A stretch of 34,937 nucleotides of DNA. It comes from a virus. Its lineage: Duplodnaviria; Heunggongvirae; Uroviricota; Caudoviricetes. Each line of letters starts with the position of its first letter. Position 1 is the stretch's first letter. This document shows, piece by piece, positions 5,020-24,060 of this stretch. The position numbers and the translations under genes are program-made. A model generated the notes under the pieces. The model was not told where the DNA came from, searched no databases, and was given only the letters and a program-made list of their open reading frames with translations. Where the stretch lies: IMG/VR virus record IMGVR_UViG_2571042690_000022; one strand, written 5' to 3'.

Positions 5020-6789
5020 TCAGTTGCCGTTAACAATGCTGATAACACTGCTGCGGGCCGGTGTGGTCAGCGTGGCCATGACTTCATCCAGTGCGGCTTC
5101 CGGTACGCCGTCCGGGTACTGTGCCGTTAACTGGCGGTAATGTTCCGGCGTCCAGGTAAGGCCGTCGGCGCTGAACTTATCGCGCAGGGCTTTCGCGGCC
5201 TCCACATGAGTCATGGGACGTTGTTCAGTGCGCGGCCCGCGTACGTCAGAGGCCTGACCACGCTTCGGCATATAGGCCGGAAGTGTGGTGTCGTCGATAT
5301 GTTTATACGGGTCAAGCCGCCCGCCGAACGGCAGCGCCTTCGCCTTGCGTGCGGCGGCTGCATCTGCGGCGTTGTCTGTACCGGTAACCAGCGCTTCGGT
5401 TTCTTTTGCCGCCATCTGTGCCGGGGTTTCCGGCAGGGCTTTGTAACTTTCGCCAAATACCGCCGCGCCTTCAGCAAAGCCAAACTCGTTCTTTCTGACC
5501 TCTTCGACCAGGAAGAACGTCTCGTGGCCGTCCTCACCGGTCAGAACCACCTGTGCCACATCGCTGCGCCATGGGTTACGGGTAATCATCAGTTTTTCAC
5601 CAACCAGTACGCCCGGTACCGTTGATACGTCAAATTCAGTGCCCCGGAACGAGACACGAAGTTTTGGCGTGACTTTGCGGAGTTCTGGTGCCGCCACAGC
5701 CAGTTCACGACATACCTCAACGGAAGGCGCTTTTTTCAGCTGCTCAGCAGTAATCTTCAGCCAGATATCCGTGCGGGTTTTACCGTGGCGGCTGTGAACA
5801 GCCGTGGCGTTAAAGTGGCTGCGCCATTTCGCGGCCAGCGCGTTGAGTTCTTCCAGACTGTGAACCGGCCGGAACTTCAGACCCGGCTCCAGCTTGCGTT
5901 CGATAATGTCACGCGCCTTTTCCACCTGTCCGGTGGCGCGGGCGTTATGCGGCTTGTGCGCTATCAGGTCGATGCCCAGTGAGCGGCACATGTTTTTCGT
6001 CATACCCGCGGTGTTTGCCGAGCCGGGGTCGAGATAGAGTATTTTCGGCACGCCGTGCAGCACGTCTGCGCCGCCACGCTCCTGCATGGCGTTGATAAGC
6101 ACAGAACACAGGTTCTCACCTGATTCCGCGCCCGTCACATACTCAACGTAAATCCAGCCGCTGGCATGGTCGGTAATCTCGTAACTCCACACGCGGTCAC
6201 TGGCGATACGGGCAAGGTTAGCGGGCTTGTTCTTGTAGAACTTCGCGCTGTCCATCACCTGCAGCCCTTTATGTCCATTGCTCAGGTAGTAAAGCGTGCA
6301 GAGTGAGGCGTCAATCTGCCAGACATGATTGGGATGCAGACTGGCCACTTCGGTATGTGGTGCAGGGGCATCCAGTTGTTCCGGGTGCAGGCCATAGTTA
6401 CGCAGAGCACGGCTGATGGCATCTTCAGACAACGGGAAAAACTCACTGGTGGTTTCATCTGTTCTGCCTGCGGTGATAAAGCCGTTAGCCCGCAGGGTTT
6501 CCACTGCATCTGCGATGGAATAGAGACGCTTACCGTTCTTGCGGGTGGCCTCACGCAGTGTGGCAGATATCAGCGCGGCTTCGTCGCGGGTCAGGGCGCT
6601 GCGCCCGGCATCGGCGCGTTTTTTGCGTTTATCAGTCACAGATACCTCCTTCAGCCTGCGCAGCAGAGTGGCGCGGGACATGCCAAGTTCAGCACAGGCA
6701 GCGTCGTATATTGCACCGCGTTTACCATGCCCCGCGTCACGTGCCGCGCGGGCTGTTTCAACCAGTTTTTCAGTCAGTGCCGGGGTCAT
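5020..6789 (-). CDS. DDE transposase (Mu A-like)
   Basis: 589 aa; candidate DDE residues in WQIDAS, YLDPGS and GQVEKA; gene order ner-like, A, B as in transposable phages. Confidence 0.9.
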   Translation of the reverse strand: MTPALTEKLVETARAARDAGHGKRGAIYDAACAELGMSRATLLRRLKEVSVTDKRKKRADAGRSALTRDEAALISATLREATRKNGKRLYSIADAVETLRANGFITAGRTDETTSEFFPLSEDAISRALRNYGLHPEQLDAPAPHTEVASLHPNHVWQIDASLCTLYYLSNGHKGLQVMDSAKFYKNKPANLARIASDRVWSYEITDHASGWIYVEYVTGAESGENLCSVLINAMQERGGADVLHGVPKILYLDPGSANTAGMTKNMCRSLGIDLIAHKPHNARATGQVEKARDIIERKLEPGLKFRPVHSLEELNALAAKWRSHFNATAVHSRHGKTRTDIWLKITAEQLKKAPSVEVCRELAVAAPELRKVTPKLRVSFRGTEFDVSTVPGVLVGEKLMITRNPWRSDVAQVVLTGEDGHETFFLVEEVRKNEFGFAEGAAVFGESYKALPETPAQMAAKETEALVTGTDNAADAAAARKAKALPFGGRLDPYKHIDDTTLPAYMPKRGQASDVRGPRTEQRPMTHVEAAKALRDKFSADGLTWTPEHYRQLTAQYPDGVPEAALDEVMATLTTPARSSVISIVNGN

Positions 6790-6804
6790 AGCTTGTCTTC
6801 CCTG

Positions 6805-7122
6805 TTATCCGATTCTGGCGGCAATTTTTCTGGCGAGGTCGCACAGTGTTTCGCCATCGCAGGTTTTCACCACGGTATTTACCGGTTGCGGTGCAACTAC
6901 CGGGCGTAATGCTGACTGATTCTGCAGACGTCTTATCTGCTGCATCAGCATCACCTCCATCGTCAGTACAAACGGGTGCGTCTCCTGTGCGGGTACGCAG
7001 ATTTCACCGGAAGGGGTCACCACGCGGAAACCCTGCACCATCTCCGGCAGCAGATTACACAGTGCGTGCCCCAGTGCCTCCGGGCTGTCCATCAGGGTAT
7101 TTTGTGTGTTATTCGTATTCAT
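6805..7122 (-). CDS. hypothetical early protein
   Basis: 105-aa ORF between the upstream early gene and the transposase; no motif recognised. Confidence 0.4.
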   Translation of the reverse strand: MNTNNTQNTLMDSPEALGHALCNLLPEMVQGFRVVTPSGEICVPAQETHPFVLTMEVMLMQQIRRLQNQSALRPVVAPQPVNTVVKTCDGETLCDLARKIAARIG

Positions 7123-8042
7123 TACTGCATATCCTCCGGTCGGTTGATTTCAGGTTCCGGTTCGGTCAGCCAGGCGGGGGCATCGTTACCCGATGGAGCG
7201 GCCTCAAGGTCAAACGTCTCACGTAATGCATGAACACTGCGTTCAATCTGGCAGACCAGACCGGCCATGAAATCTCTGGGGGTATCGATCATGTTTTTGG
7301 TGCAGTATTCACACAGGGTCTCAAAAACACTGGACAGCCGGACGGCGATAGCCGATTCGGCCTCAACCGCTAATGCCGTCACTTCCGCCCGCAATTTTTT
7401 CAGTTCTTCGTCTGGCGGCGGAGGTTGCAGGCGCGATTTCTTCTCCAGTTTTGTGGCCAGTTCGTTGATTTTTTCGTCCTTTCCGGCAAGCACCTGTTGC
7501 TGAGCTGCGTTGGTTTCGCGCGCTTCACGCAGGGCGGCCTTCAGTTCGCGGCTGGTCATGCGATCAATATCATCAAGCGTTGCACCGGCGACGGTTCCAC
7601 CATCAGCTAATGCGTCGAGTTCTTCGTCATCCAGAACCATCAGTTCATATAACTTGGTTTTTCCCAAAACGCTCAGCGCTGAGCGTTTTGGCTGTTCATC
7701 TCCATTGCCGAGAAATTTCACGCTGGCCTGCATCATGCGACGAGCTACCTGTGGTGCTAATCCGAGGTCGTTTTCCAGAATATTTGTGAAATCACCATGC
7801 GGTTCATTTTCTTTTAAGATGATCAGCCGCTTACCCGCTTCCAACATAGATTCAGCACTCTGCGCCATATAAAAACGTGCTTCGTGAACGATGCGTTCAC
7901 GTTCATAAGGCAGTCCATCACCAAACTGCTGCATGATCTCCATGCGATGCTGTGTCATGGCATTCAGGCTGACGTTGAGATCATCCGACAGCGGTACATC
8001 GGCGTTCAGTTCAGTGTTAATCGGTGATTTGGTACGTCCCAT
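7122..8042 (-). CDS. hypothetical early protein (possibly DUF3102-like)
   Basis: 306-aa ORF with AAGGAG RBS about 8 nt upstream of ATG 8042; predicted coiled-coil middle region; family assignment is a recollection only. Confidence 0.45.
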   Translation of the reverse strand: MGRTKSPINTELNADVPLSDDLNVSLNAMTQHRMEIMQQFGDGLPYERERIVHEARFYMAQSAESMLEAGKRLIILKENEPHGDFTNILENDLGLAPQVARRMMQASVKFLGNGDEQPKRSALSVLGKTKLYELMVLDDEELDALADGGTVAGATLDDIDRMTSRELKAALREARETNAAQQQVLAGKDEKINELATKLEKKSRLQPPPPDEELKKLRAEVTALAVEAESAIAVRLSSVFETLCEYCTKNMIDTPRDFMAGLVCQIERSVHALRETFDLEAAPSGNDAPAWLTEPEPEINRPEDMQ

Positions 8043-8052
8043 TGATTACTCC

Positions 8053-8361
8053 TTACAAACGACTACCTGAAATGACACGTTGGTTAATTTCGTTAATACG
8101 ATCCTGTGCACGTGCCATCTCGTTACTGTGGGCCATGGCGATCTGCAGTAACTGGATGCCCGGTGCAAAACGTCCGTTCTCCAGTTTCAGAGCCAGCCCT
8201 TCTTCAATGAGGGTGTTGAGTGCCCGGTTGATGTTTGCCGGTGACTCGTGCAGTGCTGTCGCCAGTTCACCGTTAGAAATACCGTTCAGGGCATGACCGC
8301 GCAGCGCTTTGAGTACCCGGAGGATGCGACTGCCGGAGCTTGAAACATTCGTCTTACTCAT
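8053..8361 (-). CDS. winged-helix DNA-binding protein (IclR/MarR-like HTH)
   Basis: SRILRVLKAL...GISNGELATAL...NINRALNTLIEEGL resembles a wHTH N-terminal domain; start uncertain (8361 or 8367). Confidence 0.45.
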   Translation of the reverse strand: MSKTNVSSSGSRILRVLKALRGHALNGISNGELATALHESPANINRALNTLIEEGLALKLENGRFAPGIQLLQIAMAHSNEMARAQDRINEINQRVISGSRL

Positions 8362-8413
8362 CTGCATACCTCTTTTGCGATATGTGATAACCTTTTACAA
8401 AGACTCAAAATAT

Positions 8414-8602
8414 TTAGGCCGCCTGAGCTGTTGATTTCAGTCCCAACTTCACGGCGATTTCATGGGATTTACCGTAACGGGCTTTGGTCTGCCCGTTGAG
8501 AACGCGGTATACCTCATTGCGGTTGTAGCCGTTTTCTTCTGCCCAGCGGGTGAAAGTGATCCCGCGCTGGCGGAAGAGAGCTTTGACTTGTTCTGCAGTC
8601 AT
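8414..8602 (-). CDS. Ner-like DNA-binding protein (Cro-like early regulator)
   Basis: 62 aa; pattern resembles the Ner/Nlp family; first gene of the leftward operon, divergent from the repressor; AAGGAG RBS 7 nt upstream of ATG 8602. Confidence 0.6.
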   Translation of the reverse strand: MTAEQVKALFRQRGITFTRWAEENGYNRNEVYRVLNGQTKARYGKSHEIAVKLGLKSTAQAA

Positions 8603-8695
8603 CGTTGTCTCCTTTGTTGATGCAATGATGTTTGCCTTATATGTGTTAGATTATTGCTCATAATTATGAGCATATCAAGATAGAGATTCACTTTT
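8603..8695. promoter_or_regulatory. divergent early-promoter / repressor-promoter switch region
   Basis: 93-bp AT-rich gap between divergent ner-like and repressor genes; contains the 8655-8672 palindrome and a TATAAG-like -10 (rc of 8636-8641) suitably placed for the leftward operon. Confidence 0.5.
8655..8672. promoter_or_regulatory. candidate operator: 18-bp perfect palindrome TGCTCATAATTATGAGCA
   Basis: Perfect dyad read directly from the sequence; its right half TTATGAGCA recurs at 8694-8702 overlapping the repressor start codon. Confidence 0.5.
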
Positions 8696-9052
8696 ATGAG
8701 CAAAGATATAGGAGAGCGCGTTATTTCTGTGAGGAAGAAAGCAGGGTTGAACCAGAGAGAATTTGCAGCTCGTTTAGGTATTTCTAATGGTGGTATCAGT
8801 CAGATTGAAAATGGAAAGGCGATGCCTGGAGGGGAGTTTCTGTTAAAGATGCATCAAGAGTTTAATGTTGATGTAAATTGGTTGCTCACTGGAATGAGCA
8901 CAGATGGTATGACTAGAAACCAGAATCAAATTTCCCCAGAAAAACAAAAACTAATAGATACTTTTGACGACATGACACCAGACCAACAACGCTCATTTCT
9001 TGAGATTGGGCGATTCTATACTCAGCCAAAACCAGGAAAAATCGCAGGCTGA
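8696..9052 (+). CDS. XRE-family HTH repressor (lysogeny repressor candidate)
   Basis: 118 aa; N-terminal HTH (LNQREFAARLGISNGGISQIENGK); divergent from the early operon; gene is markedly AT-rich relative to its neighbours; weak or no SD. Confidence 0.75.
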   Translation: MSKDIGERVISVRKKAGLNQREFAARLGISNGGISQIENGKAMPGGEFLLKMHQEFNVDVNWLLTGMSTDGMTRNQNQISPEKQKLIDTFDDMTPDQQRSFLEIGRFYTQPKPGKIAG

Positions 9053-9137
9053 TACTGACCCGGACACAAAGGACAGGTGGTTGATCTGGATGCTTTCAGA
9101 AAACATCGCCAGTGACATAGTGGAAGTTGTTTGGTTT

Positions 9138-9170
9138 ACCGGAAAGCATTGTGCTTTCCGGTTTTGTTTC
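9138..9170 (+). terminator. rho-independent terminator-like hairpin
   Basis: Stem ACCGGAAAGCA (9138-9148), loop TTG, stem TGCTTTCCGGT (9152-9162), then TTTGTTTC; lies between the convergent repressor and dam 3' ends. Confidence 0.5.
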
Positions 9171-9933
9171 AGAAGTTGCAGATTAGCAGTTCACGGCGCG
9201 GCGTGGGTTTACCCGCCAGACTGTAGTTGATATTCACTGTCTGTATGTTCAGTCCAGTGAACACCTCGCGCATCTGCGGGATGTCGTTCACCGAAATTAT
9301 CATTTTTCCTCTGATGCACCGGGCCAGCTCTGCCAGCCGCGAGTAGTTCCCTTCAGGAAAATCCACACCATAGCCTTCCGTACCCAGGTACGGTGGGTCG
9401 CAGTAGAACAGCGTGTGCGGACGATCATAACGCTCAATGCACTGTTGCCAGTCCATGTGTTCTATGACTGTTCTGGAAAGCCGCAGGTGTGCCGCTGACA
9501 GTTCTTCTTCAATACGTAGCAGGTTGAAGCGTGGCGGGGATGTGGTGGAGGTACCGAAGCTGTGCTCTGCCACCTTGCCGCCAAACGCCTGCTTCTGAAG
9601 GTAGTAGAACCGTGCCGCACGCTGGATATCCGTCAGTGTTTCTTCCGGGGTGATCTGCAGCCATTTGTAGATCTGACGGCTGACCAGCGCCCATTTGAAC
9701 TGGCGGACAAATTCTTCCAGGTGATGCTTTACCACCCGGTACAGATTCACCAGTTCACCGTTGATATCATTGATGACTTCGATCTTGCCGGGTGTCTTAA
9801 GAAAATAGAGCGCTGCTGCCCCACAAAACGGCTCCACATAACATTCATGCGCCGGAAACAGCGGCAGAATGTGTTTTGCAAGGCGGCGTTTGCCACCAAT
9901 CCACGGCACGATGGGTAATGTCTGCATTTTCAT
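9169..9933 (-). CDS. dam: Dam-family DNA N6-adenine methyltransferase (orphan, no cognate endonuclease seen)
   Basis: WIGGK, YVEPFCGAAALYF, INDINGELVNLY and FYCDPPY match E. coli Dam motifs as recalled; start set at ATG 9933 (MKMQTLPIV) rather than the ORF-track start at 10023. Confidence 0.85.
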   Translation of the reverse strand: MKMQTLPIVPWIGGKRRLAKHILPLFPAHECYVEPFCGAAALYFLKTPGKIEVINDINGELVNLYRVVKHHLEEFVRQFKWALVSRQIYKWLQITPEETLTDIQRAARFYYLQKQAFGGKVAEHSFGTSTTSPPRFNLLRIEEELSAAHLRLSRTVIEHMDWQQCIERYDRPHTLFYCDPPYLGTEGYGVDFPEGNYSRLAELARCIRGKMIISVNDIPQMREVFTGLNIQTVNINYSLAGKPTPRRELLICNF

Positions 9934-22392: not shown

Positions 22393-22643
22393 TGAAAGAA
22401 TACCGCTATTCCGGCCCGGCCAGCGGCGTCACGCTGTCGGACGGAACCGAAATCCTGCTCTGGCCGGGGAAGACGGTTTCCCTGCCGGAGGAGCATGACT
22501 ACGTGAAGGTACTGGTGGCGCTGAAACATCTGACGCCGGTACCTGAAGAGACTAAACCCGCCGGCACACCGGCTGTGCAGTCACCAAAGCGCAGAAGCAG
22601 CAGTGACAGCGAAGTGAAAACGGAGGACACCCATGGCAGCTAA
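22389..22643 (+). CDS. hypothetical small late protein
   Basis: 84 aa with low-complexity C-terminus; directly upstream of the tail sheath. Confidence 0.45.
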   Translation: MMKEYRYSGPASGVTLSDGTEILLWPGKTVSLPEEHDYVKVLVALKHLTPVPEETKPAGTPAVQSPKRRSSSDSEVKTEDTHGS

Positions 22644-24060
22644 CTATCTGCATGGTCCCGAAACCATTGAGGTGGAAAACGGTGCCCGCCCGGTTAAAAC
22701 GGTGAAATCTGCCGTTATTGGCCTGATTGGTACCGCCCCGATGGGGGATGTCAATACGCTGGTACAGTGCCTGTCTGAGAAAGACGCAGCGGCATTTGGC
22801 AGCCAGTTCACCGGCTTTACCATTCCGCAGGCGCTGGATGCGATTTATGACCATGGTGCAGGCACCGTTCTGGTCATTAACGTCCTCGACCCGGCGAAAC
22901 ATAAAACGGCGATCGAGGATGAGGTGGTTACCTTTGACAAATCGACAGGGCAGGCCAGACTGGCGCATCCGGTTGTCGCTAATGTGGTGGTGAAAAACAG
23001 TGAAGGCAGCACCACCCACACGGCGAACACGGACTACCGTGTTGATGCGCAGGCGGGTGTGCTCACGAACCTGGGCAAGGCTATTGAGGCCGGTGGCAGC
23101 GTGAAGGTGAGCTATGAGTACGCGGACCCGTCGAAGGTGACTGCGGCGGACATCATCGGCGGGGTGAACAGCGCCGGAAACCGAACCGGCATGAAGCTGC
23201 TTAACGACAGCTTCAACCTGTACGGCTATTTCGCCAAAATTCTGATTGCGCCGGTGTTCTGCACCCAGAAGAGTGTCGCAGTTGAGCTTATCGCCATGGC
23301 AGAGAAGCTGGGCGCGGTAACCTACATTGATGCGCCTGTCGGTACCACCTTTGCACAGGCTCTGGCAGGTCGTGGCCCGGAAGGCACCATCAACTTCAAT
23401 ACCAGCTCCGACCGCGTCCGTCTGTGCTATCCGCATGTGAAGGTATATGACCCGGTGACAAACACAGAGCGTCTGGAGCCGCTCAGCCAGCGTGCAGCAG
23501 GTCTGCGTGCCAGAGTCGATCTGGACAAGGGCTACTGGTGGTCATCCTCCAATCAGGAGATTCTGGGGATCACCGGCGTGGAGCGCCAGCTGTCCGCGAT
23601 GATTGATGACCCGCAGAGTGAGGTGAACCTGCTTAACGAACAGGGGATCACCACGGTATTCAGCAGTTACGGCAGCGGCCTTCGTCTGTGGGGTAACCGG
23701 ACGGCAGCATGGCCAACGGTCACCCATATGCGTAACTTTGAGAACGTTCGCCGCACCGGTGATGTGATCAACGAGTCCATTCGTTATTTCAGCCAGCAGT
23801 ACATCGACATGCCGATTACTCAGGCGCTGATTGATGCACTGACGGAGTCGGTCAACGCCTACGGTCGCAAAATGACTGGTGATGGTGCGGTACTGGGCTT
23901 CCGTTGCTGGTTTGATCCGGCCCGCAATCCGGAGACGGAGCTGGCCGCCGGGCACCTGTTGCTGAGCTACAAATATACGCCACCACCGCCGCTGGAGCGA
24001 CTGACGTTTGAGACTGAGATCACCTCGGAATACCTGTTAACCCTGAAAGGGGGCAACTGA
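22633..24060 (+). CDS. tail sheath protein (Mu L-like)
   Basis: 475 aa; size, position before the tube gene and conserved C-terminal region typical of contractile tail sheath. Confidence 0.85.
   Translation: MAANYLHGPETIEVENGARPVKTVKSAVIGLIGTAPMGDVNTLVQCLSEKDAAAFGSQFTGFTIPQALDAIYDHGAGTVLVINVLDPAKHKTAIEDEVVTFDKSTGQARLAHPVVANVVVKNSEGSTTHTANTDYRVDAQAGVLTNLGKAIEAGGSVKVSYEYADPSKVTAADIIGGVNSAGNRTGMKLLNDSFNLYGYFAKILIAPVFCTQKSVAVELIAMAEKLGAVTYIDAPVGTTFAQALAGRGPEGTINFNTSSDRVRLCYPHVKVYDPVTNTERLEPLSQRAAGLRARVDLDKGYWWSSSNQEILGITGVERQLSAMIDDPQSEVNLLNEQGITTVFSSYGSGLRLWGNRTAAWPTVTHMRNFENVRRTGDVINESIRYFSQQYIDMPITQALIDALTESVNAYGRKMTGDGAVLGFRCWFDPARNPETELAAGHLLLSYKYTPPPPLERLTFETEITSEYLLTLKGGN

Follow-up and report, generated by a model that had tools for sequence, protein, structure and literature searches.

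Predicted operators of a 434/P22 c2-like immunity repressor in the early control region of a BcepMu-like transposable prophage

The divergent control region and its repeated palindrome

The subject of this study is the short region between two divergent genes in a stretch of viral DNA of 34,937 nucleotides (IMG/VR record IMGVR_UViG_2571042690_000022; the whole stretch is called the window below, and coordinates are counted from its first base), and in particular an 18-bp palindrome lying within it. In sequence the window matches Escherichia phage PhiKM (PQ738613; genus Bcepmuvirus) at 100% identity and represents a BcepMu-like transposable prophage. Of 5426 complete E. coli genomes, about 390 (approximately 7%), many of them from human clinical isolates, carry the region at an identity of at least 99%. 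The first of the leftward, early genes (8414–8602, minus strand) encodes a 62-residue helix-turn-helix (HTH) protein that belongs to the BcepMu_gp16 family (97 bits with TIGR04111, whose cut-off is 34) and is referred to here as gp16/Ner-like; its score against the Ner family of Pfam, HTH_35, was sub-threshold (17.9 bits, cut-off 25, E = 0.003). Genes for an IclR-like HTH protein, a DUF3102 protein, a 105-residue protein without a Pfam match and a transposase, in which rve is the only Pfam match, follow in that order. To the right, a gene on the plus strand (8696–9052) encodes a second HTH protein, of 118 residues. A gp16-family gene that diverges from a cro/cI-like gene and lies upstream of regulators and an rve transposase is also the arrangement of the gp16/gp17 immunity region of Bcepmuvirus.

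The gap between the start codon of the 62-residue gene (8600–8602) and the ATG at 8696 is 93 bp long, as the initial annotation of this DNA had stated, and the palindrome that it described, TGCTCATAATTATGAGCA at 8655–8672, can be read directly from the sequence as a perfect 9 + 9 inverted repeat, TGCTCA-TAATTA-TGAGCA, which we term O1. A promoter scan of positions 6700–9300 gave a single sigma-70-like match, the early promoter Pe (8650–8678, minus strand), with the −35 hexamer TTGATA at 8678–8673, a 17-bp spacer, the −10 hexamer AATAAT at 8655–8650 and 10 of the 12 consensus bases. By its position, Pe drives the gp16/Ner-like, IclR-like and DUF3102 genes and the transposase. The palindrome had been placed over the −35 region of this promoter, which has to be corrected: it abuts the −35 hexamer, and consists of the spacer between −35 and −10 together with the first base of the −10 hexamer. 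The same layout of Pe and a dyad is present in 51 distinct related loci and in BcepMu itself.

The right half of the palindrome, TTATGAGCA, recurs at 8694–8702 across the repressor ATG, as had been noted, and the exact 9-mer occurs three times in the 35-kb window, each time in this control region. It had been regarded as a repeated half-site; the recurrence is real, but it forms the strong arm of a complete, weaker predicted operator, O2 (8685–8702; GATTCA-CTTTTA-TGAGCA), with its centre 30 bp from that of O1, a degenerate left arm and a perfect right arm that holds the start of the repressor gene (ATG AGC A). A search of the window with the pattern TGCTCA-N6-TGAGCA returned a second match without mismatches, TGCTCACTGGAATGAGCA at 8883–8900 (TGCTCA-CTGGAA-TGAGCA), and this third predicted operator, O3, is intragenic, with centre-to-centre distances of 228 bp to O1 and 198 bp to O2, and overlies the codons for W-L-L-T-G-M-S, where the HTH domain of the repressor meets its C-terminal domain. 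The complete 18-mer of O1 has no further match elsewhere in the window with three mismatches allowed.

Taken by itself, the palindrome is only mildly unusual: 0.16 perfect 9 + 9 palindromes are expected per shuffled window, and at least one is present in 14% of shuffles. The features that are far from chance are the placement of the site within the 93-bp divergent region, the recurrence of the arm for a third time at a distance of 30 bp and the perfect-arm copy 228 bp away, a match to the 12 specified arm bases being expected about 0.002 times per window (34,920/4^12). Because such palindromes are common enough in shuffled sequence, the functional case made below is built on position and conservation and not on the palindrome alone.

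The repressor and its relatives

Homology points to the 118-residue protein as the immunity repressor of the prophage. It comprises a 434/P22 c2-like HTH domain, a linker and a two-helix C-terminal domain; the match to Pfam HTH_3 is clear (4.6e-15, 55.8 bits against a cut-off of 23), HTH_19 is also matched, and the 434 repressor (E = 3.4e-8) and P22 c2 are the nearest matches to the N-terminal domain. An AlphaFold model (mean predicted local distance difference test score, pLDDT, of 80) has five helices at residues 5–65, a disordered linker and C-terminal helices at 81–91 and 95–109, and its helices 5–65 superpose on DNA-bound P22 c2 at 1.2 Å with a template-modelling (TM) score of 0.91. No Peptidase_S24 domain, as in the LexA-like autocleavage that mediates SOS induction, was matched by Pfam in the repressor, the C-terminus of which consists of two short helices in about 40 residues. 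The best structural matches to the full-length model were SinR and DdrO, which, together with the C-terminal domain, may hint at higher oligomers, a suggestion drawn from a model of the monomer. In GenBank PQ738613 (29435–29791) the gene is unannotated and a 41-residue open reading frame is called on the opposite strand instead, and the RefSeq E. coli annotation reads ‘helix-turn-helix domain-containing protein’.

The role of immunity repressor has been demonstrated experimentally for one homologue, RepC of phage Fc02, by a temperature-sensitive mutation, G64E, and by plasmid-borne immunity (PMC9936078), and by analogy may be extended to the protein in the window. Fc02 RepC is 31% identical to the repressor over its full length, and its Gly64 aligns with Gly66 of the repressor in an invariant column of the alignment. 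Heat inactivation of RepC fires the promoter pE into ner and the early genes (PMC9936078).

We collected from bacterial genomes 80 loci anchored on the gp16/Ner-like protein, and added E. coli variants, viral contigs for which the repressor or the operator pattern served as anchor, and contigs with more distant repressor homologues; individual loci are given below by their L or P numbers. In nine heteroimmune relatives, BLAST homology with the window covers the ner-side gene and its leader, ends at 8654–8656 and resumes at 8885–8938 or past the repressor gene. On the left, the exchanged segment therefore has its junction at the first base of the palindrome. This segment (8655–8885, plus strand, with a right junction that varies between 8885 and 8938 according to the relative) is an exchangeable immunity cassette containing the −35 hexamer of Pe, O1, O2 and the HTH coding sequence. 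Each of these relatives has a different 18-bp dyad in the position of O1, followed directly by a TTGACA-like −35 hexamer; examples are GGTGCAGATTACCTCACC, TATCCCAATAATGGGATA, GAGAAC-N4-GTTCTC, GGTAGAAAATTTTCAACC, TATACACAAACGTGTATA and TGTCTAAAAAATTAGACA. Perfect 7-bp outer arms were present in 43% of 51 distinct promoter spacers, compared with 0.5% of shuffles.

Three natural exchanges separate the possible readers of the dyad. In L002, the gp16/Ner-like protein is 100% identical to that of the window and the HTH domain of the repressor only 26% identical, and the dyad is the different GGTGCAGATTACCTCACC. In L101–103, the C-terminal domain of the repressor is shared (85–95% identical), the HTH domain differs, and the dyad is TGTCTAAAAAATTAGACA. 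In L152 and L154, the recognition helix is shared and the C-terminal domain differs, and the dyad is again TGCTCA-N6-TGAGCA, in L152 even within a non-Ner phage context that has no Ner-like gene and instead a divergent 80-residue gene and a pRha-domain gene. These swaps lead us to conclude that the dyad follows the HTH domain of the repressor, and the comparison argues strongly that it tracks neither the Ner-like protein nor the IclR-like protein nor the repressor C-terminus. The proposal of the initial annotation that the palindrome is an operator of the XRE-family repressor over the early promoter is thus strongly supported by the position of the dyad in the promoter core and by its co-variation with the HTH domain. 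The IclR-like early protein was rejected as a reader on the same grounds, the same accession (WP_000047758.1) being present in L002 and L003, whose dyads differ.

The repressor gene itself is mosaic. The sequence for the C-terminal domain (8885–9052, residues ~64–118; ISPEKQKLIDTFDDMTPDQQRSFLEIGRFYTQPKPGKIAG) is 51–95% identical in heteroimmune repressors, being common to the unrelated-HTH repressors of L002, L003, L006, L101, L104, P0020 and P0023, and the domain also ends an unrelated 177-residue protein, P0024. This distribution suggests a shared oligomerization module or a shared target for induction.

Within the immunity type of the window, nine lineages carry the recognition helix IS[N/S]GGISQIE and, where the whole protein aligns, have protein identities of 57–78%. 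The O1 arms TGCTCA and TGAGCA are invariant in all nine, and the central 6 bp, the −35 hexamer, the DNA between the operators and the flanks vary; fixed arms about a variable centre are the pattern of constraint typical of a protein-binding site. O2 is likewise present in all nine, 27–30 bp from O1, with a right arm that is always perfect (ATG or GTG, then AGC A), and the O3 arms are perfect in eight, the centre of O3 varying at synonymous positions and at an M/V residue. In L157, which belongs to this type, the repressor is 78% identical and O1, O2 and O3 are the same as in the window; the first gene behind the conserved early leader in that locus (859–1407) encodes a 182-residue Mor-domain protein, and the gp16-like gene comes next.

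On this evidence we consider it likely, with a probability of roughly 85%, that the palindrome is O1, the high-affinity operator through which the prophage's own 118-residue repressor silences Pe, and that O2 and O3 are auxiliary. From the sites, their positions relative to Pe and their co-variation with the HTH domain, all of which can be read from the sequence and the comparisons, we infer steps of binding, cooperativity, autoregulation and looping, as follows. A repressor dimer on TGCTCA-N6-TGAGCA would fill the 17-bp spacer of Pe and exclude RNA polymerase, and with Pe blocked the operon of gp16/Ner-like, transposase and replication genes would stay silent in the lysogen; occupancy of O1 would also stop incoming phages of the same immunity type. 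O2 most likely would add cooperativity and make repressor synthesis self-limiting. O3 most likely would raise the local concentration of repressor, or join O1 and O2 in a loop of about 200–230 bp through the two-helix C-terminal domain.

Weak points and rival explanations

Several observations weigh against this reading or parts of it. Autoregulation, which the initial annotation had allowed for as a possibility, is the weakest step, because scans did not locate the repressor's own promoter: no plus-strand match of at least 9 of the 12 consensus bases was found in 6700–9300. The possibilities are an extended −10 element, TGTTAGATT (8644–8652, plus strand), which overlaps the −10 hexamer of Pe; a −10-like GAGATT (8683–8688, plus strand) 7 nucleotides 5′ of the ATG, which overlaps the left arm of O2 and would yield a leaderless mRNA; or a distal promoter, as in Fc02. 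The first, as TGnTAGATT, is retained in enterobacterial relatives, but within a block that is conserved anyway; as regards the second, a GAnnTT-like hexamer stands at a matching distance from the start in the same-helix lineages, and the repressor ATG is not preceded by a Shine–Dalgarno sequence. The left arm of O2 is poor, with 3 of 6 bases matching; its variants in the lineages are GATTCA, ATTTCA, TGTTTA and GGATCA, of which only T4 and A6 are retained, and their conservation could reflect the −10-like GAGATT element instead. O3 is not present in the same-helix lineage L152, nor was a site of this type detected in L002, L003, L101 and Fc02, and it is consequently not essential to the design of the switch. 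We found no mapping of transcription starts for this phage in the literature and no published operator mapping for the BcepMu/B3 group, the Fc02 transcriptome paper being the only relevant one.

Finally, the correspondence of helix and operator is not one-to-one, because repressors with a different recognition helix, ARNT[IL]YNW (N-terminal domain ~24% identical), use the identical arms TGCTCA-N6-TGAGCA. In these loci (L023, L024, L057 and L105–L149, on viral contigs from metagenomes and in Pseudomonas), O2 lies over an ATG-AGC start and a perfect copy is found within the gene, 237–266 bp downstream, in the codon context IAQKYEQ; the different codon context points to independent selection for a distal site. 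The sharing of arms may reflect common descent of the cassette, convergence or cross-recognition. It is conceivable, if doubtful, that a unit of about 230 bp (the −35 hexamer of Pe, O1, O2 and the HTH domain) moves as a self-contained cassette whose junctions fall on operators, the left one on O1 and the right one on O3, where the two domains meet at LTG, and that TGCTCA-N6-TGAGCA is read by the two lineages with the different helices IS[NS]GGISQIE and ARNT[IL]YNW. If so, cross-immunity across phage genera, or replacement of the repressor without a change of operator, would be possible.

Among the rivals, the one that fares best accepts O1 and regards the copies at the ATG and within the gene as by-products of coding for Met-Ser and Leu-Leu-Thr-Gly-Met-Ser, with no regulatory role. 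Both do overlap conserved amino acids, and the weak left arm of O2 and the patchy occurrence of O3 among the immunity types agree with it. We nevertheless think it unlikely, since the codons are more constrained than the amino acids. The Ser2 codon is always AGC despite its six-fold degeneracy, and Leu64 (CTC) and Ser68 (AGC) are similarly invariant; across five lineages only four of 17 conserved six-fold-degenerate codons never vary, and three of those four (S2, L64 and S68) lie in operator arms; of the 14 six-fold-degenerate codons outside the arms, 13 vary (Fisher exact p ~0.006). The residue after Ser68 may be Thr, Asn or Ser, but its codon always starts with A and so keeps the arm; in L155 the change from Thr to Ser is encoded by AGT, which again leaves the arm intact. 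O3 thus appears to be conserved beyond what the coding sequence demands, the ARNT-type lineage has perfect distal copies of its own in another codon context, and the expectation of some 0.002 chance matches per window also speaks against a by-product. The domain-swap relatives L101–103 lack the left arm of O3, as would be expected. The window type and the ARNT type clearly have a third site, and one is plausible for L006 (at +259) and for GAGAAC-type loci (at +175).

It is far less probable that the gp16/Ner-like protein reads the palindrome in the manner of Cro, as a lytic repressor, either alone or on operators shared with the repressor. The gene is the first downstream of Pe, its product is a small HTH protein and shared operators are the rule in lambdoid switches such as that of lambda Cro and CI. 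However, the protein is conserved next to unrelated dyads, being 100% identical in L002, which contradicts the earlier suggestion that it binds the palindrome, and 82–87% identical in L004, L006, L009, L010 and L015, and the palindrome is retained in L152 and L157, where the first gene is not Ner-like. The site of the protein is better sought in a conserved motif in the leader of Pe (8619–8635; GATGCAATGATG, GCAA-N6-TTGC), which on the mRNA strand reads CATC(A/T)TTGCATC just 5′ of the Shine–Dalgarno sequence and is at least 80% conserved in 53 distinct gp16-linked leaders from Enterobacterales, Pseudomonas, Xanthomonadales and Nitrosomonadales; it may be an autoregulatory site for the gp16/Ner-like protein or an element of the 5′ untranslated region.

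Slightly less probable again is an RNA hairpin in the rightward repressor transcript, serving as attenuator, stability element or mask of the start codon. The arms of the dyad are able to pair with each other, and a second pairing possible in RNA, between the O1 left arm and the O2 right arm, would span the AUG. The fold does not surpass those of shuffled controls (z = −1.64, equalled in 13 of 200 shuffles), no U-tract follows the hairpin, and the dyad lies upstream of the transcription start of Pe. O2, with one perfect and one degenerate arm, cannot form a hairpin, and the arm sequence is fixed across lineages where an RNA stem would predict compensatory changes. The dyad also changes together with the HTH domain. 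That the palindrome is a chance feature of AT-rich intergenic DNA is barely credible despite the frequency of perfect palindromes in shuffled windows, given its exact placement in the promoter spacer, the invariance of its arms in nine diverged lineages, the other dyads that replace it at the same coordinate in heteroimmune relatives and the two further arm copies nearby.

Relation to known switches and significance

The reading of O1 as the repressor's operator over Pe places the window among known kinds of switch: on sequence grounds it is a switch of the 434/P22 c2 type in a transposable phage of the BcepMu/B3 type. With 434, P22 c2 and lambda CI it shares the HTH fold of the repressor, 18-bp dyad operators in which the outer arms are conserved and the AT-rich centre varies, the overlap of operators with the core of a lytic promoter in a short divergent region, and several sites of graded quality in an immunity region that is exchangeable among heteroimmune relatives. 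Unlike the lambda type, the repressor has no S24 peptidase or RecA-cleavable C-terminal domain; unlike lambda Cro, the divergent gp16/Ner-like protein has a gene that is not part of the immunity cassette and cannot be a second reader of the operators, as the differing dyad of L002 indicates; and there are two intergenic sites and one intragenic site rather than the three tandem sites of the lambdoid switch. The phage is a transposable, BcepMu-like phage and not lambdoid.

Phage Mu is likewise transposable, and its repressor gene likewise diverges from an early operon in which the gene of a small DNA-binding negative regulator comes first and the transposase follows; the Mu repressor acts at several operators. 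However, Mu c is a winged-helix protein related to the N-terminus of the transposase, whereas the window repressor has an XRE/434-type HTH, and by homology the switch is not that of Mu c and Ner. BcepMu itself has the same gene order, with transposase, regulators and gp16 leftward and the cro/cI-like gp17 rightward, and carries the dyad GGTATGCGTTTGATTACC directly before TGTCAA, its −35 hexamer, with a second copy spanning the gp17 ATG; the operator sequence and the repressor HTH differ from those of the window, and we found nothing on BcepMu operators in the searchable literature.

The repc–ner region of Fc02, of the B3 family, has a homologous repressor, a divergent ner-like gene, a short intergenic region and overlapping promoters pE and pC2 (PMC9936078). 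In our comparison its layout is that of the window, with TGGGAC-N6-GTCCCA before the −35 hexamer and a half-site just 5′ of the ATG, in an operator sequence that differs from that of the window; the Fc02 operators were not mapped in that study. In the Fc02 lysogen, most transcription of repc comes from a distal promoter, pC1, and passes through the overlapping genes olg1 and olg2 (PMC9936078), and we identified no counterpart of pC1, olg1 or olg2 in the window.

An auxiliary operator a few hundred base pairs away and within coding sequence is also known from TP901-1 CI (OR, OL and OD; PMC7250872), lac (O1 and O2) and gal (OE and OI), and repressors of the TP901-1 CI type likewise combine a short HTH domain with a helical oligomerization domain. 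Unlike in those systems, O3 lies inside the repressor's own gene, so that its spacing of 198–228 bp is set by the length of the protein.

Other elements near the control region can be described briefly. A terminator-like hairpin with a T-run (9138–9162, plus strand; an 11-bp stem with six G–C pairs and a TTTGTTT tail) lies 3′ of the repressor gene, in the interval where this gene and that of the Dam methylase converge. At the 3′ end of the latter, TGTTCAGTCCAGTGAACA (9246–9263) forms a perfect dyad, TGTTCA-N6-TGAACA, with two arm mismatches, and a site with one mismatch, TGCTCACGAACCTGGGCA (23060–23077), lies in overlapping long open reading frames at 22552–24060; as operators both are probably due to chance, and the relatives checked do not conserve the former. 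The DUF3102 early gene (7122–8042, minus strand) contains a perfect palindrome of 28 bp, CCAAAACGCTCAGC|GCTGAGCGTTTTGG (7664–7691), of which about 1e-4 would be expected by chance per window. It is flanked by A/T runs in the manner of a bidirectional terminator, and the GCTCA..TGAGC at its core is similar to the operator arms, apart from a spacing of 4 bp; this spacing, and its occurrence only in loci identical to the phage and not in relatives of ~80% identity, led us to reject it as a related operator.

The analysis confirms that transposable phages of the BcepMu/B3 type run a 434-like rather than a Mu-like switch, and brings no new mechanism, so that it is mechanistically unsurprising. With operators, repressor and Pe defined, it offers a handle for predicting mutual immunity among BcepMu-like prophages, a basis for virulent or inducible derivatives and a guide to reading the transcriptome data of lysogens. 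Some 25 orthogonal natural repressor/operator pairs on one promoter scaffold may serve as regulatory parts, and the value of the finding lies in the annotation, immunity typing and engineering of these phages.

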